Shown: positions 22,827 to 31,876, counted from the stretch's first letter. The stretch: DNA of 32,000 bases from Dickeya solani IPO 2222 (GCF_001644705.1 NZ_CP015137.1:1140001-1172000), one strand, 5' to 3'. Numbers and translations are program-made. The notes: generated from the sequence alone by a model not told the origin.

Positions 22827-23837
22827 ATGGCCACCATTAAGGATGTCGCCAGGTTGGCGGGCGTGTCGGTCGCAACCGTGTCACGCGTCATCAACGATTC
22901 GCCGAAGGCCAGCGCACAGGCGCGCAGCGCGGTACTGCAGGCCATGCAGCAGTTGCAATACCACCCGAACGCCAACGCCCGCGCGCTGGCCCAGCAATCT
23001 ACCGAAACGCTGGGGCTGGTGGTATCCGACGTGTCCGATCCGTTTTTCGGCACTATGGTCAAAGCGGTGGAGCAGGAAGCCTACCGCACCGGCAACTTCC
23101 TGTTGATTGGCAATGGTTATCATGTGGCGCACAAGGAACGTCAGGCGATCGAACAGCTGATTCGCCACCGCTGCGCGGCGCTGGTGGTTCACGCCAAGAT
23201 GCTGCCGGATGAGGAACTCACCCAACTGATGGAACAGATTCCGGGCATGGTGCTGATCAACCGCATCCTGCCGGGTTATGAAACGCGCTGCGTGGCGCTG
23301 GATAACCGCTACGGCGCCTGGCTGGCGACCCGGCACCTGATCCTGCAGGGGCACCGCCAGATCGGCATCCTGTGTTCCAACCACGCCATCTCCGACGCCG
23401 ATGACCGTCTGGCCGGCTACCGGGACGCGCTGGCCGAACACGCGATTCCGCTGGATGAGCAGTTGATCGCCTATGGCGAACCGGACGAAAGCGGCGGCGA
23501 AGCCGCGATGATCACGCTGCTGGAACGCGGCCGCCCGCTGACCGCGCTGACCTGCTACAACGACCCAATGGCCGCCGGCGCGCTGGCGGTGCTGAGCGAT
23601 AACGGTATTGAGGTGCCGCGGGATATGTCGCTGATCGGCTTCGATGATGTGCTGCTGTCGCGTTACCTGCGCCCGCGCCTTACCACCATCCGCTACCCGA
23701 TTACCGCGATGGCGACGCAGGCGGCGCAGATCGCGCTGGCGCTGGCCAACGACACGCCGTTACCCAACGCCATCAACCTGTTCCACCCGACGCTCATTCG
23801 CCGACATTCGGTCGCCGGTTTGAATAATGGGCACTAG
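22827..23837 (+). CDS. galR: Galactose operon repressor GalR (LacI family)
   Basis: MATIKDVARLAGVSVATVSRVIN.SPKAS ... YHPNANARALAQQ.TET.GLVV.DVSDPFFG.MVKAVEQ.AY.TGNFLLIGNGYH is colinear with E. coli GalR through to PTL.RRHSV. An AGGAAA SD precedes the start. Confidence 0.95.
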   Translation: MATIKDVARLAGVSVATVSRVINDSPKASAQARSAVLQAMQQLQYHPNANARALAQQSTETLGLVVSDVSDPFFGTMVKAVEQEAYRTGNFLLIGNGYHVAHKERQAIEQLIRHRCAALVVHAKMLPDEELTQLMEQIPGMVLINRILPGYETRCVALDNRYGAWLATRHLILQGHRQIGILCSNHAISDADDRLAGYRDALAEHAIPLDEQLIAYGEPDESGGEAAMITLLERGRPLTALTCYNDPMAAGALAVLSDNGIEVPRDMSLIGFDDVLLSRYLRPRLTTIRYPITAMATQAAQIALALANDTPLPNAINLFHPTLIRRHSVAGLNNGH

Positions 23838-24283: not shown

Positions 24284-24757
24284 TTACCTTAACGCGCGGT
24301 GATACAACCGCACCGTTTTATCGGGGTAATCCGGCGCATCGCCCAGATAACGCCAGCCGTGGCGTTCGTAGTAACCGCTGAAACCGGCGTAGAGATAGAG
24401 ATCGTGGAAGCCGCGCTCGCGGCTGAACTCGACCACAAAGCGCTGTAGCTCAGCGCCCAGACCGCGATCGCGGTAGTGTTCGTCCACATAAAGCGCCGCC
24501 AGCCAGGGGGTCAAATCCTGTCGGCTGATCAGATCGCAGCGCCATAGCCCGACGGTGCCGACCAGTTGCTCACCTTCCAGCGCCACAAACGTCAGCGGCA
24601 ATGCCTGTTTGTCCATGCTGTGATGCACCACGCTGGCAAAAAAGTCCCGGCTCAGACCCTCGCCAAACGCCTGCCACAGCCAGTCGACGACCTGCGCCTC
24701 AAAGTGCGGGTAATCCGCCAGATAGCCTATCGTTGCCTTAGACTCTATCGTTGCCAT
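24284..24757 (-). CDS. GNAT-family N-acetyltransferase
   Basis: 157 aa. It has the acetyl-CoA-binding core LAALYVDEHYRDRGLGAELQRFVVEF (Q/RxxGxG/A type). The start lies 3 nt after the stop of the upstream GntR gene, so co-transcription is likely. Confidence 0.8.
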   Translation of the reverse strand: MATIESKATIGYLADYPHFEAQVVDWLWQAFGEGLSRDFFASVVHHSMDKQALPLTFVALEGEQLVGTVGLWRCDLISRQDLTPWLAALYVDEHYRDRGLGAELQRFVVEFSRERGFHDLYLYAGFSGYYERHGWRYLGDAPDYPDKTVRLYHRALR

Positions 24758-24760
24758 GCG

Positions 24761-25528
24761 TCAGACCAGTTTTCCCTGAAAGATCGGTACCGAATCGAAC
24801 AGATAGCCGTCAAATTCCGGCGCTTCGGCATCGGATATCTCCATCAGGGTGGTTTTGACGTTTTCCAGATGCTGCCACATCGCCTGATAAGAGCCGCTAA
24901 CGTCCCGACGACGCAGCGCCGCCAGTATCGTCTGGTGGTCCGCCAGCCATTTCAGCCGGTAGCCGTGGTTGCCGACATGACTGTAAAGCTGCTGCCAGAT
25001 GGGGCTTTCGTCCCGGCAAGACCAGATATTGCTGACCGTTTCCAGCAGCATCTGGTTTTGGGTGGCACCCGCCACCTGCAGATGAAAGATTTTGTCGAAA
25101 TCGCTGCGGTAATCATTGGCGGCGATGGCCGCCTGCTCCTGCTCCAGCGTATGTCGCAAGATATCAATGTCATTGCGGGTCGCCATACGGGCGGCAAACG
25201 CGGCGATATTGCTTTCCAGCAACTGTCGCGCCTGCAGCATTTCAAACGCACCGATGCGGTTTTGCGCATTGGGGGACGGTTCCTCCGCCGACGGCACGCG
25301 CAACACGTACACGCCCGACCCCTGGCGGATATCCACCGTGCCTTCCAGCTCCAGCATCAGCAAGGCTTCACGCACAATGGTGCGGCTGACGCCGTAGGTT
25401 TCCGCAATATTCCGCTCCGGCGGAAGACGCGCCCCGACCGGGTACTCCCCCTGCTGGATTTTCTCCCGCAGGTCACACCCTATCTCCTGGTATTGCTTTC
25501 TTTCTTGTAGAACCACAACCTTCGCCAC
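24761..25528 (-). CDS. GntR-family transcriptional regulator, FadR subfamily (FCD domain), ExuR/UxuR-like
   Basis: The wHTH is LPPERNIAETYGVSRTIVREALLMLELEGTVDIRQGSGVYV. FEMLQARQLLESNIAAFAA and the C-terminal MWQHLENVKTTL are colinear with E. coli ExuR/UxuR. The start is uncertain. I chose GTG 25528 (AGGGTGG upstream) because the longer track ORF N-terminus (to 25651) is Arg/Gly/Ala-rich and unlike homologues. Confidence 0.8.
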   Translation of the reverse strand: MAKVVVLQERKQYQEIGCDLREKIQQGEYPVGARLPPERNIAETYGVSRTIVREALLMLELEGTVDIRQGSGVYVLRVPSAEEPSPNAQNRIGAFEMLQARQLLESNIAAFAARMATRNDIDILRHTLEQEQAAIAANDYRSDFDKIFHLQVAGATQNQMLLETVSNIWSCRDESPIWQQLYSHVGNHGYRLKWLADHQTILAALRRRDVSGSYQAMWQHLENVKTTLMEISDAEAPEFDGYLFDSVPIFQGKLV

Positions 25529-25713: not shown

Positions 25714-26031
25714 TCAGTTTACCAAACTCAGCGCCTGATCGAGTACCTTTGCGCCGTTCAGGGTGCCGTAAGCCACCGAATCGATCACCGCGATCGGAAT
25801 TTGGTACTCGTCGGTCAGTTTCTTGTTTTCCGTCAGTTTGAAGCGCACCTGCGGCCCCAGCAGCACCGCAATGATATCGTCGCCGTAGGTTTGCAGTTCA
25901 TCCCGCAGGTTCTGTTCAGGGATGGCGTAAATCTGGTATTCCATGCCGCGCGCCGTCGCTTCCTTTTCCATTTTGGTCACCACCAGCGACGTGGACATGC
26001 CTGCCGAGCAGGCCAGTACGATCCGTTTCAT
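25714..26031 (-). CDS. PTS lactose/cellobiose-family EIIB component
   Basis: 105 aa. IVLACSAGMSTSLVVTKM contains the phospho-Cys motif of ChbB/CelA-type EIIB, followed by LLGPQV. An AGGGGGAAAG SD precedes the start. Confidence 0.9.
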   Translation of the reverse strand: MKRIVLACSAGMSTSLVVTKMEKEATARGMEYQIYAIPEQNLRDELQTYGDDIIAVLLGPQVRFKLTENKKLTDEYQIPIAVIDSVAYGTLNGAKVLDQALSLVN

Positions 26032-26039
26032 CTTTCCCC

Positions 26040-27476
26040 CTATTTATCTTCATCGTCCAGTTCTAACGCCAGCACACCGCTGTCCCGTACCTGACGGAAC
26101 CAGCTTGCCGATTTCTTCGGCCGCCGCTGCCGGTCGTGCTCCAGATCGATTTCAATCAGGCCGTAACGGTTCTTGAACGCATTCATCGGCGAGACGTTGT
26201 CGGTAAAGGCCCACAGCATGTAACCCAGACAGTTGGCCCCGTCTTCGCGCGCCTTCAGCGTCCAGTAAAGGTGCTCGGCGATGAACGCGATACGGTAATC
26301 ATCCTGCACCACGCCGCGGCTGTCTTTGAACTGACCTTCGTTTTCAATCCCCATACCGTTTTCCGACACGAACCAGGGCAGGTTGCCGTATTCGTTTTTC
26401 AGGCGCATCGCCATGTCGTAAATGATGCGGGGATTAATCTCCCAGCCACGGGACTTGTTCATCCGGCGACCGGGCAGTTCGAAATGCTCGTAGTAGTAGG
26501 CCGGGTGGAACGGCGTGTTGCTGTTCCACGCCCGGCTGGGCGCTTTGACCCGGTGCGGGTAATAGAGATTGATCCCCACCTCGTCCACGGTATTGGCGCG
26601 GATGACAGCCAGCTCTTCCTCGGTGTAATCCCAATGCACCTGATGCGTTTCCAGCAGCGCCAGCAGCTCTGCCGGGTATTCGCCCTTCAGCGCCGGATCC
26701 AGAAACACCCGGTTGTAGAACAGGTCATACAGGCGCGCCGCTTCCACATCGTGCGCGGCGCTGGAGCGCGGATAGGTCACTTCCGGATTGAGGATCACCC
26801 CGATGCTGCCGCCCTGTCGGTGGTAACCTTTGTCGCGGAACAATTGCACGACTTTGGCGGTCGCCAGATTCTTGTGATGGTTCCACTGCATCCAGACGCC
26901 GGTGTCCTGCTGGTAGGGGTAGCGCACCGCGTCCAGATAGACGCGGGTCTGCACCACGATCGGCTCGTTAAAGGTGAACCAGCGTTTAACCTTACCGGCA
27001 TAGCGGGCGAATACCGCGTCGGCGTACTGCACGAACCACTCCACCACCTGCTTCGACGACCAGCCCTGATACTTCTCGAACAGCACCGCCGGCAGCTCGT
27101 AATGTTCCAGACACAGCATCGGTTCGATGCCCTGCCGGTGCAGTTCGTCGATCAGGTTGTCGATGTAGGCGGCGTATTCCTCATCCACCACGCCGTTTTC
27201 ATAATCCAGCATGAAGCGCGACCAGTTGATGGAGGTGCGGAAATGGGTCAGCCCGGTCTGCTTCATCAGCGCCACGTCTTCGCGGTAGCGGTTGTAGAAG
27301 TCGGTAGCCACCGCCGGGCCGTAGCCGTTGTGCCACACCTGACGGTCGCGCTTGTACCACAGGTCCAGATAGGAATCCTGCCCGCTTTTCTTGCCTGACC
27401 ATCCTTCGGTCTGCCAGGCGGACGCCGCCGCCCCCAGAATGAAGCCCTCGGGAAGGGTCATTGATACCTTGCTCAT
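26040..27476 (-). CDS. GH1 6-phospho-beta-glycosidase
   Basis: 478 aa from MSKVSMTLPEGFILGAAASAWQTEGW. FRTSINWSRF, WFTFNEP (acid/base), FVSENGMG (nucleophile). The C-terminal WAFTDNVSPMNAFKNRYG has Ser where non-phospho enzymes carry Glu, consistent with a phosphorylated substrate. ATG 27476 has an AAGGGAGA SD; the track start at 27500 is a TTG. Confidence 0.88.
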   Translation of the reverse strand: MSKVSMTLPEGFILGAAASAWQTEGWSGKKSGQDSYLDLWYKRDRQVWHNGYGPAVATDFYNRYREDVALMKQTGLTHFRTSINWSRFMLDYENGVVDEEYAAYIDNLIDELHRQGIEPMLCLEHYELPAVLFEKYQGWSSKQVVEWFVQYADAVFARYAGKVKRWFTFNEPIVVQTRVYLDAVRYPYQQDTGVWMQWNHHKNLATAKVVQLFRDKGYHRQGGSIGVILNPEVTYPRSSAAHDVEAARLYDLFYNRVFLDPALKGEYPAELLALLETHQVHWDYTEEELAVIRANTVDEVGINLYYPHRVKAPSRAWNSNTPFHPAYYYEHFELPGRRMNKSRGWEINPRIIYDMAMRLKNEYGNLPWFVSENGMGIENEGQFKDSRGVVQDDYRIAFIAEHLYWTLKAREDGANCLGYMLWAFTDNVSPMNAFKNRYGLIEIDLEHDRQRRPKKSASWFRQVRDSGVLALELDDEDK

Positions 27477-27495
27477 GCCTGTCTCCCTTTCGTTT

Positions 27496-27563
27496 TTCAA
27501 TTCGCTTCGTTGTTCGATTCGCTTACGTGTTCGATCTGCTTACGTGTTCAATACGCTTAGCTT
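27496..27563. repeat. 17-bp tandem repeat x4 in the EIIC-GH1 intercistronic spacer
   Basis: The four copies are TTCAATTCGCTTCGTTG (27496-27512), TTCGATTCGCTTACGTG (27513-27529), TTCGATCTGCTTACGTG (27530-27546) and TTCAATACGCTTAGCTT (27547-27563). The last copy contains the EIIC stop codon (27557-59). Confidence 0.85.
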
Positions 27564-28897
27564 TTCGCTGCGCTGGCCTGCTCGGCTTCCGCTTCCCGCT
27601 GCGCCTGCTCGGCGCGACGGGACGCCACTTTGACGAACGGCAGGTAAATCAGGGTGGCGACGATGATGCAAACAATCTGCGTCGCCACCGCGCCCATGGA
27701 ACCGGCGGTGGACAGCCAGGCGTTGATGATCGGCGGCGTGGTCCAGGGCACCATCACCACCGCTTTGCCGGCAAACCCCATGCTGGTGGCGAAGTAACCG
27801 ATGGTGCCGGTGACCAGCGGCGTGATGATGAACGGAATCGCCAGAATCGGGTTGAGCATGATCGGCATACCGAAAATCACCGGCTCATTGATGTTGAACA
27901 CGCCCGGGCCGAAGGAGATCTTGGCGATCTCTTTCATTTCGCGGCGTCGGGAAGCGATCATCACCGCCAACAGCAGCCCGATGGTCAGCCCGGACCCGCC
28001 GATGCTCATGTACACGTCCCAGAACGGCATGGTGATGATATTCGGCACCTCGTGACCCTGCTCAAACGCGGTCATGTTCACCGCGATCGCCCCCAGCAGC
28101 AGCGGTTCGCGGATCGGCTTGATCATCTGGTTGCCGTGGATGCCGATCACCCAGAACAACTGCGCCACAAACATCAGGATCAACAGCCCCGGCAGGCTCT
28201 GCACCACCGATTCCAGCGGCTGCTGCACCACCATGTAGATAGCGTCGTACAGGTACATGCCGGTCACTTTCTGGAAGGTAAACCCAAAGGTCGCCACCAG
28301 CGTCACGGTGATGATCGCCGGGATCAACGCCGAAAACGACGCGGACACATTCGGCGGCACGCTGTCCGGCATCTTGATGCGCAGCCGGTCCACCGATTCC
28401 AGTTTGGAGTAAATCTCCACCGACAGAATGGCGATGAACATGCCGAGGAACAGGCTCTTGGTGTCGGAGAACTGGCGCGCCAGCACGTCTTTCACCGGCA
28501 AAGTCTGGCCGTTGATCACCATATCGATGGTGGTGGGGGTAATCGAAATAAAACAGATCACCGCCAGCAAACCGGGGAATAACCCGCGGGAGCCATTGAT
28601 GCGCCCCAGTTCGATGCCGATCAGGAACACCGCGCCGATGGTCAGAAAGTTCAGCGTGGCGTAGTTAATACCGCTCATAATCGGCTTGAGCGGCGCCAGA
28701 AACGAGAACATGGCGAAACTCGCCAGCCCGTTCTTGGGGTCAAGCACCATATTGGAGATCAGCACAGAGAAAGCGCCCACGATGATCACCGGCATCAGCG
28801 TGATGAACGAGGCTTTGATCGCCATGATGTATCTCAAACTGTTGAACTGGTTGGCAAAAGATCCCAATGAATCGATGGCCTGATCCTTGAATGACAT
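27557..28897 (-). CDS. PTS lactose/cellobiose-family EIIC permease
   Basis: 446 aa from MSFKDQAIDSLGSF. It is polytopic, with KMPDSVPPNVSASFSALIP, WVIGIHG, GGSGLTIGLLLAVMIASRR and FNINEPVIFGMPIMLNP colinear with E. coli ChbC. ATG 28897 has a GAGGTGGAG SD. Confidence 0.9.
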   Translation of the reverse strand: MSFKDQAIDSLGSFANQFNSLRYIMAIKASFITLMPVIIVGAFSVLISNMVLDPKNGLASFAMFSFLAPLKPIMSGINYATLNFLTIGAVFLIGIELGRINGSRGLFPGLLAVICFISITPTTIDMVINGQTLPVKDVLARQFSDTKSLFLGMFIAILSVEIYSKLESVDRLRIKMPDSVPPNVSASFSALIPAIITVTLVATFGFTFQKVTGMYLYDAIYMVVQQPLESVVQSLPGLLILMFVAQLFWVIGIHGNQMIKPIREPLLLGAIAVNMTAFEQGHEVPNIITMPFWDVYMSIGGSGLTIGLLLAVMIASRRREMKEIAKISFGPGVFNINEPVIFGMPIMLNPILAIPFIITPLVTGTIGYFATSMGFAGKAVVMVPWTTPPIINAWLSTAGSMGAVATQIVCIIVATLIYLPFVKVASRRAEQAQREAEAEQASAAKS

Positions 28898-29011
28898 AAC
28901 TCCACCTCTTTGATTTACCTGCATTTTCAGGGGTTGTTGTTATCAGAGGCTATCGCCCCCGTAGTGGCCGTTACGCGCGGAAGAATGGACGGCAGGTTCA
29001 GCGCTTTCGCG

Positions 29012-29024
29012 TTTGGCATACCAA
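29012..29024. promoter_or_regulatory. Candidate operator, copy 1 (TTTGGCATACCAA; palindromic TTGG-N4-CCAA)
   Basis: This 13-mer is identical to 29109-29121. It overlaps the predicted start region of the minus-strand (EIIC) promoter. Confidence 0.45.
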
Positions 29025-29048
29025 AAAAATAAAACAAATGAATAATTT

Positions 29049-29070
29049 TTCTGTGACATTGTTCTCACAA
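29049..29070. promoter_or_regulatory. Candidate CRP-binding site shared by the divergent EIIC and EIIA promoters
   Basis: TTCTGTGACATTGTTCTCACAA contains TGTGA-N6-TCTCA, one mismatch from TGTGA-N6-TCACA. It is centred at 29059.5, about 41-42 bp from the start sites implied by TAACAT (29090-95, plus) and TATTTT (29031->29026, minus). Confidence 0.5.
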
Positions 29071-29071
29071 G

Positions 29072-29091
29072 CCAATATTGGAATTCCAATA
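29072..29091. promoter_or_regulatory. Overlapping perfect palindromes CCAATATTGG / TATTGGAATTCCAATA (candidate central operator)
   Basis: There is a 10-bp palindrome at 29072-29081 and a 16-bp palindrome at 29076-29091, the latter containing TTGGAATTCCAA. They overlap the spacer and -10 of the predicted EIIA promoter. Confidence 0.45.
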
Positions 29092-29108
29092 ACATGGAAA
29101 ACATCAAA

Positions 29109-29121
29109 TTTGGCATACCAA
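29109..29121. promoter_or_regulatory. Candidate operator, copy 2 (TTTGGCATACCAA)
   Basis: Identical to 29012-29024. It abuts the EIIA SD (AGAGGA, 29121-29126). Confidence 0.45.
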
Positions 29122-29133
29122 GAGGACAACGCG

Positions 29134-29460
29134 ATGGAATTCGATATGGAACAGACCGTGATGGAGCTACTGATCAACGCCGGCGAAGCCCGATCCAGCG
29201 CCATGATGGCGATTCAGGCCGCCCGCGGGCAGGACTGGGCACAGGCCGACGCGCAGTTGCTGGCCTCGAAGGAGGCGGCGAAAGCGGCCCATCTTATCCA
29301 GACCCGGCTGATCGGGCTGGACGAAGGCGAAGGCAAAGTGCCGGTCAACCTGATTATGGTACACGCGCAGGATCATCTGATGACCGCCATGCTATGCCAC
29401 GATCTGGCCGAAGAGATGGTACTGCTGCGCAAAGAGCTGTTTGACCGCTCGTCAGCCTGA
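29134..29460 (+). CDS. PTS lactose/cellobiose-family EIIA component
   Basis: 108 aa from MEFDMEQTVMELLINAGEARS. LIMVHAQDHLMTAML contains the phospho-His motif, as in E. coli ChbA (LVLVHAQDHLMTSML). An AGAGGA SD precedes ATG 29134; the track start at 29038 adds 32 non-homologous codons. Confidence 0.85.
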   Translation: MEFDMEQTVMELLINAGEARSSAMMAIQAARGQDWAQADAQLLASKEAAKAAHLIQTRLIGLDEGEGKVPVNLIMVHAQDHLMTAMLCHDLAEEMVLLRKELFDRSSA

Positions 29461-29587
29461 CGACGCCGCGCCGGCAGAGAGATATTCTGCACCTGCCCCA
29501 CTGACGCTGTGCCAGTGTGCTAGTATGTGACAAAGATTGATAACAACTCTGTGACAGACTTCGGTAAAAACAGGGAAGGTGCAAACC

Positions 29588-30598
29588 ATGATGACCATGC
29601 TTGATGTGGCAAAGCATGCCGGCGTATCCAAAGCAACGGTATCACGGGTGCTGAACAGTACAGGTCAGGTGAAGCAAAGCACGCGCGATGCCGTGTTCAA
29701 AGCGATGGAAGAACTGGGCTATCGCCCCAACTTTCTGGCGCGATCGCTGGCGCAACGCAGCTCAAACAGCCTTGGCCTGGTGGTATCCAATTTCGACGGC
29801 CCCTATTTCGGCCGTTTGCTGCGTCGGGCGGCGGAACGCACCGAAACCAGCGGCAAGCACCTGATCGTGACCGACGGCCACGATACGCCGGAAGACGAAC
29901 AACAGGCGGTGCAACTGCTGACCGATCGCCGCTGCGACGCCATTGTGCTCTATACCCGCCACATGTCCGACGCGGCGCTGATGGGGCTGCTGGAGCAGTC
30001 CACGGTGCCGATCGTGGTCATCAACCGCCACCTGCCGATGGCGCCTGACCGCTGCGTCTGGTTCGAACAACAGCAGGCGGTGTTCCAGTTGATCGCTTAT
30101 CTGGTGCAGCAAGGGCACCGCGAAATTGCCTGTATCACCGGGCCGATCAACACCCCGACCGCGCGCGCGCGTCTGGCGGGTTACCGGCAGGCGCTCGACC
30201 ATCATCGTATCCCTTATGATCCGCTGCGGGTGGTCAACGGCGACAATCTGGTGCCCGGCGGCTATCAGGCGGTGCGCGAACTGCTGGCGCATGACGCCGG
30301 TTTTTCCGCGATTTTCGCCAGCAACGACGATATGTGCATCGGCGCGATGAAAGCGCTGCTCGAAGCCGGTAAACGGCTGCCGCAAGACGTGTCGCTGTTC
30401 GGCTTTGACGATATCCCCAGCGCCCCTTATCTGAACCCGGCGCTGTCCACGGTGTATTTGCCGATTGAAGAGATGATCAGCGCCGCCATCTCGCAGGCGC
30501 TGAAATTGTCTGAAGGCGAAGCGGTCAAACCGATCGCCCCGTTTATCGGTGAATTGAAACGGCGTGCCTCGGTGGCGCAAGGGCCGCACGCGCGCTAA
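29588..30598 (+). CDS. LacI-family repressor, AscG-like
   Basis: MMTMLDVAKHAGVSKATVSRVLN...YRPNFLARSLA..SSNSLGLVV, RLAGYRQAL, ASNDDMCIGAMKAL and FGFDDI..APY..PALS.V are colinear with E. coli AscG. ATG 29588 has a GGGAAGG SD. Confidence 0.88.
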   Translation: MMTMLDVAKHAGVSKATVSRVLNSTGQVKQSTRDAVFKAMEELGYRPNFLARSLAQRSSNSLGLVVSNFDGPYFGRLLRRAAERTETSGKHLIVTDGHDTPEDEQQAVQLLTDRRCDAIVLYTRHMSDAALMGLLEQSTVPIVVINRHLPMAPDRCVWFEQQQAVFQLIAYLVQQGHREIACITGPINTPTARARLAGYRQALDHHRIPYDPLRVVNGDNLVPGGYQAVRELLAHDAGFSAIFASNDDMCIGAMKALLEAGKRLPQDVSLFGFDDIPSAPYLNPALSTVYLPIEEMISAAISQALKLSEGEAVKPIAPFIGELKRRASVAQGPHAR

Positions 30599-30613: not shown

Positions 30614-31876
30614 TTACACCCGCTCCAGCGCCAGCAGTTCGTCCAGCGTCTGGCGACGGCGGATCAACCGCGGCTGTCCTTGTTCAAACAGCACTTCGGC
30701 AATCAGCGGGCGGCTGTTGTAGTTGGAGGACATCGACGCACCGTAAGCGCCGGTGTCATGGAACACCAGATAATCGCCCACCTGCGCCGACGGCAGCGGC
30801 AGCGTTTCCACCCCACCGCCCGCCTGTTGGGTAAATACATCGCCGGATTCGCACAGCGGGCCCGCCACCACGGTGTCACGCAGCGCGGACTGGCTTAGAT
30901 CGCGCCCATCGCCCGGCAACAGGGTGATGTGATGGTAACTGCCGTACATCGCAGGGCGCATCAGGTCGCTGAACCCGGCGTCCACCAGCACAAAATGACG
31001 GCTGCCCATGTCTTTCACCGCGCACACCTGCGCCACCAGCACCCCGGACTCCGCCACCAGAAAACGCCCCGGCTCGATTTCCAGCGCCACCGGGTGCTCC
31101 AGATGCGCGGCGATCTGCTCCCGCGCCCGGTTCCACAGCCCATAATAGTGTTGAGTATCAATGCGCTCGCCGCCGTGACGATAGGGAATCGACAACCCGC
31201 CGCCGGCGGAAATCGCCTCCAGATCCTGCCCCACCGCCAGCACCTGCTGCACCATGGCGTCGCACACCTGCTCCAAATGCTTGTAATCAACGCCGGAGCC
31301 GATATGCATGTGGATGCCCACCAGCTTCAGGCGGTAACGGCTCAGCGCCTCCAGCGCCTGCGGCAAATCGGCATACCAGATACCATGTTTGCTGTTTTCG
31401 CCGCCGGTGTTGGTCTTCTGACTGTGGCCGTGGCCGAATCCCGGATTAATACGCAGCCACACCGGGTGACCCGGCGAACGCTCGCCCAGTTGATGCAGCA
31501 TGTCGATGGAACCGGCATTCACCGGAATATTCAGCTCCTGCACCCGTTGCAGCGTGGCATCATCCAGCACATCAGCGGTAAACACGATCTCATGCGCGTC
31601 GGTGCCTGGCTCAAACCCGGCCGCCAGCGCACGTTCAATTTCGCCCAGCGATACCGAATCCACTTTCACGCCCTGCTGGCGCATCAGCGTCAGAATATGC
31701 AGGTTGGAACAGGCTTTCTGCGCAAAACGGATGGTATCGAATTGGCGCAACTGACCGATGCGCTCAATGATAGTCTCGGCATCGTAGGCCCACAGCGGGC
31801 AGCCAAAGCGTTCCGGCAGCGCGCGCAGGCTCTGGACGTTCAGCGCATGGGAAAGGTCATTCAGATCGTGTGGCAT
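30614..31876 (-). CDS. lysA: Diaminopimelate decarboxylase
   Basis: 420 aa and colinear with E. coli LysA (FAQKACSN.HIL.LMR.QGVKVDSVSLGEIERALAAG, NPGFGHGHSQKTNTGGENSKHGIW, HMHIGSGVDY, EIEPGRFLVA, GPLCESGDVFTQ, HDTGAYGASMSSNYNSRPL). The AGAGGGA at 31990-31996 on the plus strand is probably the SD of a divergent lysR starting beyond the window. Confidence 0.95.
   Translation of the reverse strand: MPHDLNDLSHALNVQSLRALPERFGCPLWAYDAETIIERIGQLRQFDTIRFAQKACSNLHILTLMRQQGVKVDSVSLGEIERALAAGFEPGTDAHEIVFTADVLDDATLQRVQELNIPVNAGSIDMLHQLGERSPGHPVWLRINPGFGHGHSQKTNTGGENSKHGIWYADLPQALEALSRYRLKLVGIHMHIGSGVDYKHLEQVCDAMVQQVLAVGQDLEAISAGGGLSIPYRHGGERIDTQHYYGLWNRAREQIAAHLEHPVALEIEPGRFLVAESGVLVAQVCAVKDMGSRHFVLVDAGFSDLMRPAMYGSYHHITLLPGDGRDLSQSALRDTVVAGPLCESGDVFTQQAGGGVETLPLPSAQVGDYLVFHDTGAYGASMSSNYNSRPLIAEVLFEQGQPRLIRRRQTLDELLALERV

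Follow-up and report, generated by a model that had tools for sequence, protein, structure and literature searches.

A predicted divergent, CRP-dependent switch with three putative UxuR-type operators in a PTS gene cluster of Dickeya solani

The sugar-uptake cluster between galR and lysA

The window (the whole 32,000-nucleotide stretch of the Dickeya solani IPO 2222 genome that was analysed) contains a sugar-uptake cluster, which comprises the following genes and borders:

22827-23837, plus strand: galR, the left border of the cluster
24284-24757, minus strand: GNAT acetyltransferase, the last of the leftward genes
24761-25528, minus strand: FCD-type GntR regulator (GntR and FCD domains in Pfam), upstream of the GNAT gene; proposed binder of the operators O1-O3 described below
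25714-26031, minus strand: PTS EIIB, one of the leftward genes
26040-27476, minus strand: GH1, 6-phospho-beta-glycosidase-like enzyme, one of the leftward genes
27557-28897, minus strand: PTS EIIC (lactose/cellobiose family), heading the leftward operon
29134-29444, plus strand: PTS EIIA of the lactose/cellobiose family, rightward
29591-30598, plus strand: AscG-like regulator of the LacI family, rightward, with an extended -10 of its own
30614-31876, minus strand: lysA, the right border of the cluster

The leftward genes are arranged in the order EIIC, GH1, EIIB, GntR and GNAT, and the divergent rightward genes are EIIA and the LacI-family gene. The solved structures nearest to the GH1 protein are those of 6-phospho-beta-glycosidases (4b3k and 5foo), EIIC shares 98% identity with its Dickeya undicola counterpart, and the GC content of the cluster is like that of the host. 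The start codon of EIIC is almost certainly the ATG at 28897 (MSFKDQAI, with the ribosome-binding site AGAGGTGGAG) and not the ATG at 28924 of the longest open reading frame, since relatives align only from MSFKDQAI, which begins at residue 10 of the longest frame, and the ribosome-binding site is good. The GH1 gene most likely starts at 27476 rather than at 27500, where MSKVSMTL matches residue 1 of the Paenibacillus enzyme; the longest-frame starts at 28924 and 27500 are thus probably both wrong. With EIIC starting at 28897, the intergenic region between EIIC and EIIA spans 28898-29133 (236 bp).

For comparison, the 80 best orthologous loci were taken from a single EIIC scan, one per species, from approximately 35 genera of Enterobacterales, including Dickeya, Pectobacterium, Brenneria, Rahnella, Rouxiella, Ewingella, Serratia, Sodalis, Klebsiella, Raoultella, Kosakonia, Kluyvera, Phytobacter, Buttiauxella, Siccibacter, Franconibacter and Pantoea. 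Nearly all of these loci lie between galR and lysA, a site that holds the same cluster in many other Enterobacterales. Within the genus Dickeya the cluster seems to be patchy, with only D. undicola and D. oryzae represented among the 80 best loci; protein searches also return Musicola. The cluster was not found in any complete Escherichia coli genome, and data of the RegulonDB type are therefore not transferable to it. A literature search on this cluster, or on a PTS route for cellobionate, returned nothing.

Putative operators, CRP site and their conservation

Within and beyond the EIIC/EIIA gap, the following sites were delimited, of which the -10 elements and operators are predictions:

29013-29024, no strand: O1, operator TTGGCATACCAA (TTGGTATGCCAA read towards EIIC), immediately next to the predicted EIIC -10 and with the predicted EIIC start inside it
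29026-29031, minus strand: predicted -10, TATTTT, of the EIIC-GH1-EIIB-GntR-GNAT promoter, a conserved hexamer at class II distance
29052-29067, no strand: CRP site TGTGACATTGTTCTCA (TGTGA-N6-TCTCA; TGAGA-N6-TCACA towards EIIC), centred at 29059.5
29076-29091, no strand: O2, 16-bp perfect palindrome with the core TTGGAATTCCAA at 29078-29089, directly upstream of the predicted EIIA -10
29090-29095, plus strand: predicted -10 of the EIIA promoter, TAACAT (TATGAT in most species), at a conserved hexamer position
29110-29121, no strand: O3, operator TTGGCATACCAA, which would span approximately +9 to +20 counted from the predicted EIIA start
29518-29526, plus strand: extended -10 of the LacI-family gene, TG-C-TAGTAT (TGnTAAACT in group C, the EIIA-less loci defined below)

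The sequence TTGG-N4-CCAA occurs three times in the 32-kb window (at 29013, 29078 and 29110), each time within the EIIC/EIIA gap, and the pattern TTGGNNNNCCAA has three matches, all clustered within 110 bp, against 0.58 expected in 32 kb, a number that was reached in none of 100 shuffles. An earlier, sequence-only reading of this DNA had drawn attention to a pair of identical 13-mers, a 16-bp perfect palindrome and operator spacings of 65 and 32 bp. The 13-mer TTTGGCATACCAA is indeed present at 29012-29024 and 29109-29121, the palindrome TATTGGAATTCCAATA was found again at 29076-29091, and the measured start-to-start distances have the same values. These spacings amount to about six and three helical turns between the three operator centres, which places O1, O2 and O3 on one face of the helix. 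The half-sites of O1 and O3 are TGGT or TGGC, those of O2 are TGGA, and O3 abuts the ribosome-binding site of EIIA (AGAGGA, 29121-29126), 13 bp upstream of the EIIA ATG at 29134. The same reading had described the layout as symmetric around a central CRP site; the CRP site does lie between the operators, but strict symmetry was not borne out, as O1 is centred 41 bp from the CRP centre on the EIIC side, and O2 and O3 are centred 24 and 56 bp from it, respectively, on the EIIA side.

Phylogenetic footprinting, which had been envisaged in the sequence-only reading, was performed with an alignment of 80 sequences upstream of EIIC (79 loci and the window; L044 was left out because it has no alignment anchor), and four conserved blocks stand out in an otherwise diverged alignment. 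These are an O1 block, cTAtTTTT followed by TTGG(T/C)AT(G/A)CCAA, with the consensus TTGGYATRCCAA; a CRP block, T.TG.GA-N6-TCACAGA, or TGnGA-N6-TCACA in short; an O2 block, TTGGAAT(T/A)CCAA; and an O3 block, TGG(T/C)AT(G/A)CCAA, or TGGTATRCCAA in short. The motif TGG.AT.CCA is present in 226 copies in the 22.3 kb of the 80 intergenic regions, with two to four copies in every locus, and in 24 copies in 1.17 Mb of flanking sequence, an enrichment of approximately 500-fold. The rare copies outside the intergenic regions were considered as operators and rejected, since they often occupy a fixed coding position (in lysA, EIIB or EIIC).

The positions of the sites relative to the CRP centre are also conserved. 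The O1 core is invariant in all 78 scored loci at a distance of 39-41 bp (+40 in 62 loci, +39 in eight and +41 in eight), an invariance that is partly built in at the GG and CC bases, which were demanded at set positions in site calling; the unbiased alignment gives the same GG/CC pattern. O2 is found at -24 (51 loci) or -23 (24 loci), and O3 at -54 to -57 (72 loci) or at -45/-46 (six loci). The distance between O1 and O2 is 63-65 bp (about six turns) across the loci, and that between O2 and O3 is either 31-33 bp (about three turns) or 22-23 bp (about two turns). The shorter form reflects deletions of approximately 10-11 bp between O3 and O2, observed in a Klebsiella group (L035, L054, L056, L060 and L070) and in Buttiauxella (L072 and L077); in the alignment these deletions sit at different places, so that two separate lineages are involved. 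Because each deletion removes about one helical turn, the operators are kept on the same face of the helix.

The EIIA gene is absent from 39 of the 80 loci; the LacI-family gene is then the divergent neighbor of EIIC in 38 (group C), and one locus (L047) has neither gene. In these 38 species, which lack EIIA and its -10, O2 and O3 persist in a somewhat degenerate form and do not overlap the LacI promoter either. Their retention after the loss of EIIA suggests a role in repressing the EIIC promoter, and it is quite possible, if short of probable, that O2 and O3 contribute to that repression through cooperative binding or a loop.

Two further elements were observed in this alignment. In the EIIC leader, 4-23 nucleotides downstream of O1 (L035, L040, L042 and others), a short hairpin can form, with a conserved loop, ..GCTGT.., and arms that show co-variation from genus to genus (AGGTGT/ACACCT, GGGAT/ATCCC and GGTA/TACC). 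In a small, hand-picked sample of 12 group C sequences, both sides change at two pairs, and pairing extends to 89% of the cells, compared with at most 62% after the partners are slid. An equivalent in Dickeya and Pectobacterium is CGC-GAAA-GCG, located at about 28995-29012 on the minus strand of the window. The hairpin has no match in Rfam (a scan of 28700-29700 at E<=1 returned none) and may be a 5' stabilizer or a site for some protein. In addition, the EIIA-less species (group C, L035-L080) have in common a conserved block, AAAAGCGTGATC(GCGAT), which lies between O3 and the LacI promoter, approximately 80-90 bp upstream of the LacI -10, and shows no clear palindrome across genera.

The near-consensus CRP site named in the sequence-only reading is the single match in the window within one mismatch of TGTGA-N6-TCACA. 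By itself this match is not significant (one observed against 0.78 expected in the window), and its weight therefore derives from conservation across species and not from window statistics. When the best site per sequence is taken, 71 of 81 sequences are within one mismatch of the consensus, and the half TCACA is exact in 74 of the 81. Left halves, read towards EIIC, include TGAGA (47 sequences), TGGGA (16) and TGCGA (12), and the consensus T never occupies their third position.

On the EIIC side, the hexamer TATTTT is present in 52 of 78 loci with its first base 29-30 nucleotides from the CRP centre and O1 immediately following, a position that would place CRP at -40.5/-41.5 and the predicted start inside O1, near 29019. 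On the EIIA side, a -10-like hexamer begins 31 nucleotides from the CRP centre in all 42 EIIA-bearing loci and is lost in loci without EIIA; from its position, CRP would be at -42.5 and the EIIA start near 29101-29103. A scan for sigma-70 -35/-10 elements identified no promoter-like pair on either side of the CRP site, which is consistent with CRP-dependent promoters and is not positive evidence for the start sites. The class II geometry in both directions that had been proposed for this site fits these conserved -10-like hexamers, and we infer that a single CRP site serves both predicted promoters in a class II arrangement, with the starts predicted from the hexamers.

Candidate proteins for the conserved sites

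The FCD-type GntR regulator is named in public records either "FCD domain-containing protein" or, automatically, "uxuAB operon repressor". Its full-length identity is 49% to E. coli UxuR and 44% to ExuR, and the recognition helix V(S/T)RT(I/V)VREA and the wing R-x-G-x-G are common to all three proteins. Its best scores against the NCBIfam equivalog models are 260.5 bits for UxuR (cutoff 442) and 220.8 bits for ExuR (cutoff 396), so that it passes neither (NF007588, NF008571); it is therefore a paralogue of the UxuR/ExuR clade and not UxuR or ExuR itself, and the automatic annotation as uxuAB operon repressor is corrected by this analysis. The gene is present in all 80 loci and in Gilliamella, and the helix-turn-helix segment is essentially invariant among the 80 orthologues. 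It is thus conserved at the galR-lysA site in plant-associated and clinical Enterobacterales, among them Dickeya, Pectobacterium, Rahnella, Serratia, Klebsiella, Kosakonia and Cronobacter-related genera.

Operators of this family have an inverted-repeat consensus with TKGT/ACMA boxes, in which two nucleotides separate GT from AC in motifs of the UxuR group and three in those of ExuR, PdhR and LldR (PMC4494728). O1-O3 form an inverted repeat of the TKGT/ACMA kind, TTGG-Y-AT-R-CCAA, with the two-nucleotide spacing of the UxuR type, G[T/C]-AT-[G/A]C, at the three sites and in all 80 loci. The sequence-only reading had matched these sites to a joint ExuR/UxuR consensus, which is close enough; the UxuR part of that match was upheld, and the joint consensus was not, because ExuR-type sites are spaced by three nucleotides. 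In E. coli MG1655 the UxuR operators are AAATTGGTCAACCATTG, TGTGGTTAACCAATTT and ATTTGGTTGACCAGTTT, that is, TGGT-NN-ACCA with GG-N4-CC geometry. Neither UxuR entries nor these sites are present in the supplementary files of PMC4494728. A Budvicia relative (53% identical) has TTGGTAAACCAA upstream of a neighboring MFS-GH31 operon, and in Vibrio the UxuR encoded beside uxuA has N5-spaced TTGG...CCAA sites.

The gene and the motif occur together in all 80 loci and also beyond Enterobacterales. The Gilliamella locus, whose EIIC is 77% identical, consists of EIIA divergent from EIIC-GH1-EIIB-GntR/FCD, lacks the LacI-family gene and keeps the order O3-O2-CRP-O1 as CGGCATACCAA, GTGGAATTCCAA, TGTGA-N6-TCACG and TTGGTATATCAA. 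The same EIIC-GH1-EIIB cassette is found in Paenibacillus polymyxa and Bacillus safensis, with EIIC approximately 70-72% identical and the Paenibacillus GH1 protein 70% identical without gaps; more widely, the cassettes of Paenibacillus, Bacillus pumilus/safensis and Brevibacillus are approximately 70-73% identical to that of the window at the protein level. Two Firmicute loci, those of P. polymyxa and B. safensis, were examined; in both, a PRD/LicR-type regulator lies upstream of the cassette, and there is no GntR gene, no TTGG-N4-CCAA and no promoter-proximal TGG.AT.CCA. The compared cassettes have the coordinates 25714-28897 in the window, 7001-10162 in L089 and 7001-10112 in L090, and the B. 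safensis locus carries a cre-like sequence, TGAAAGCGCTTTTA. From these comparisons O1-O3 are most likely the sites of the locally encoded UxuR-like GntR repressor.

A first alternative is that ExuR and/or UxuR of the host, and not the local paralogue, occupy the TTGG-N4-CCAA sites, or that both bind, with cross-talk or heterodimers. The shared recognition helix and wing and the common geometry of the E. coli UxuR operators speak for such binding, and since the GntR gene is never missing within Enterobacterales, presence and absence cannot separate the paralogue from host ExuR/UxuR there. On the other hand, every locus, that of Gilliamella included, encodes the dedicated paralogue; the E. coli sites are of the form TGGT-CA/TA/TG-ACCA, whereas those studied here are TGG-Y-AT-R-CCA, differing consistently in the central AT and the Y/R positions; and regulators of this family, as a rule, act on sites near their own genes (PMC4494728). 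We therefore consider control by the host proteins unlikely; if true, it would connect the PTS operon with the hexuronate regulon.

A second alternative concerns the central element, which, instead of being a CRP site, could serve some other factor as an operator, for instance as a lacO-like palindrome of the form TGTGA-N8-TCACA. The window element can also be read in this way, and the N8 reading is CG-centred in Rahnella. Across species, however, only the N6 register, TG[A/G/C]GA-N6-TCACA, is conserved, and the Klebsiella/Kosakonia group has lost the left arm of the N8 reading. Loci without the LacI-family gene, that of Gilliamella included, also keep the element, and the missing -35 on either side fits dependence on an activator. 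An identity other than a CRP site is accordingly very improbable.

The adjacent LacI-family protein would be a third candidate, either for all TTGG-N4-CCAA sites or for O2 alone. Its gene adjoins EIIA, and a central CG is missing from a minority of the motifs in the LacI family (PMC4052901). The gene is, however, missing from 24 of the 80 loci (firmly from 22, as a contig end truncates the other two) as well as from Gilliamella, and the loci without it, in Rahnella, Rouxiella, Sodalis, Acerihabitans, Biostraticola, Mangrovibacter and others, retain O1, O2 and O3. O2 is even best conserved in the LacI-less species, as ATATTGGAATTCCAATAT, and is a perfect 18-bp palindrome in the Rahnella group. 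The LacI-family protein thus cannot be the binder that these sites require. Its sequence is 47% identical to that of E. coli AscG, and the two proteins share the recognition helix VSKATVSRVL; the AscG boxes in the E. coli ascG-ascF gap are GTGACCGGTTTCAC and GTGAAACCGGTTTCT, of the type TGAAACCGGTTTCA, and no AscG-like box (similar to GTGAAACCGGTTTC, within three mismatches) was detected in the regulatory regions of the cluster, in the window or the 80 loci. LacI-family operators are even palindromes, 16-22 bp long and in most cases centred on CG, that match the specificity of their regulator; the region 28898-29133 contains no CG-centred palindrome, in agreement with the absence of a CG-centred LacI-type palindrome reported in the sequence-only reading. 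That reading had favored the GntR over the LacI-family protein as the binder, and the sites do track the GntR/FCD gene; binding by the LacI-family protein is hardly credible. That the repeats are due to chance or non-functional, for which only the shortness of the motif speaks, is already refuted by the cross-species conservation, and the window statistics speak against it as well.

An operator for the LacI-family regulator was not identified anywhere in the cluster. The sequence GCnGTA in the EIIC leader was considered for this role and rejected, as its loose correlation with the LacI-family gene (41 of 57 loci with the gene against 5 of 24 without) is confounded by phylogeny. The only CG-centred palindrome of the cluster with at least six of seven arm positions matching is GCTTTGCCGGCAAACC at 27762-27777, whose core is a perfect 12-mer, TTTGCCGGCAAA, inside the EIIC coding sequence. 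The extended -10 of the LacI-family gene is followed by two direct TGTGACA repeats at 29526-29532 and 29550-29556, 24 bp apart, which are also present in D. undicola.

The proposed switch and its relation to known systems

The reading preferred here is that of a divergent, CRP-dependent switch repressed by the UxuR-like GntR protein at O1-O3, and we consider it probable, with good confidence. One cAMP-CRP dimer at 29052-29067 would stand in for the -35 element of both promoters, acting from approximately 41 bp upstream of the EIIC start and approximately 42.5 bp upstream of the EIIA start. Dimers of the FCD/GntR protein would bind the three inverted repeats, of the type TTGG-Y/A-AT-R/T-CCAA. 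With repressor on O1 the EIIC transcription start would be covered, O2 would fill the stretch from the CRP site to the EIIA -10, and O3 would lie in the early transcribed region of EIIA. The three operators would probably be bound cooperatively, possibly with a loop over CRP-bent DNA, and an effector bound by the FCD domain would free the repressor from them. FadR-type GntR regulators are usually simple dimers, and looping is therefore speculative. If the regulator gene is co-transcribed with EIIC, as its place in the leftward operon suggests, it would lie within the operon that it represses and would thus be autoregulated. The motif TTGGYATRCCAA and this promoter layout provide a testable proposal for an uncharacterized regulator of the UxuR clade. 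The region itself would be an ordinary enterobacterial switch, which contradicts no expectation for sugar operons and changes no general concept.

Judged by sequence comparison, the regulator is a UxuR-clade paralogue recruited to a PTS beta-glycoside cassette that is shared with Firmicutes, where it is under another type of regulator, and the history of the cassette looks like an inter-phylum transfer followed by a swap of the regulator. FCD domains normally sense carboxylates via a bound metal, which raises the possibility that the cassette imports an acidic beta-glycoside. The beta-glycoside PTS is most likely under this carboxylate-sensor type of regulator and not under the neighboring LacI-family protein, and such control narrows the search for the substrate. 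A carboxylate as the FCD ligand is speculation; a candidate substrate may be an aldonic-acid glycoside such as cellobionate from the oxidized plant cell wall. The combined model, in which the FCD/GntR protein forms a repression loop like that of nagE-B and the acid released from an imported acidic beta-glycoside is the inducer, is a long shot. If true, it would mean that a horizontally shared PTS cassette has been rewired in its regulation, and it would add a PTS route for products of oxidized cellulose that had not been described before.

Four known systems invite comparison. In the E. coli ascG-ascFB system, AscG of the LacI family represses a cryptic beta-glucoside PTS and a 6-phospho-beta-glucosidase. 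The LacI-type protein studied here is likewise encoded beside a PTS and GH1 system, but this cluster contains no TGAAACCGGTTTCA box and the LacI-family gene is dispensable in many species. In nagE-nagBACD, studied by Plumbridge and Kolb, NagC reportedly binds operators at both promoters, with CAP between them, in a repression loop. That system shares with the present one the divergent PTS and catabolic operons, the operators over both promoters with a CRP site between them, and a phasing compatible with a loop that takes in the CRP bend. It differs in its repressor, which is the ROK protein NagC there and an FCD-GntR protein here; the operator distances are shorter in the present region (63-65 and 31-32 bp), in which looping is only proposed. 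The nagE-B region has multiple CRP sites (PMC3105977).

A single CRP site between divergent promoters is known from 11 natural cases in E. coli (PMC3105977, referring to El-Robh and Busby, 2002), which, like the present region, have one CRP target between back-to-back promoters; compared with those cases, both promoters here appear to be of class II and approximately 83 bp apart, as read from the -10-like hexamers alone. The fourth system is gntP-uxuAB, one of the CRP divergons (PMC3105977), with uxuR; it is repressed by UxuR and ExuR, and the present region would share its mode of control. As in the present cluster, the regulator is an FCD-type GntR protein of this clade (UxuR and the present protein are 49% identical and have a common recognition helix), and it is associated with inverted-repeat operators of GG-N4-CC geometry (TGGT-NN-ACCA in E. 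coli), several of which lie in a divergent, CRP-controlled intergenic region. The targets differ, being hexuronate enzymes in E. coli and PTS EIIC, GH1, EIIB and EIIA here, and so does the regulator, which in the present case falls below the UxuR/ExuR equivalog cutoffs as a paralogue. The operator core here is TGG-Y-AT-R-CCA with an invariant central AT, and three phased sites are arranged around a single CRP site.
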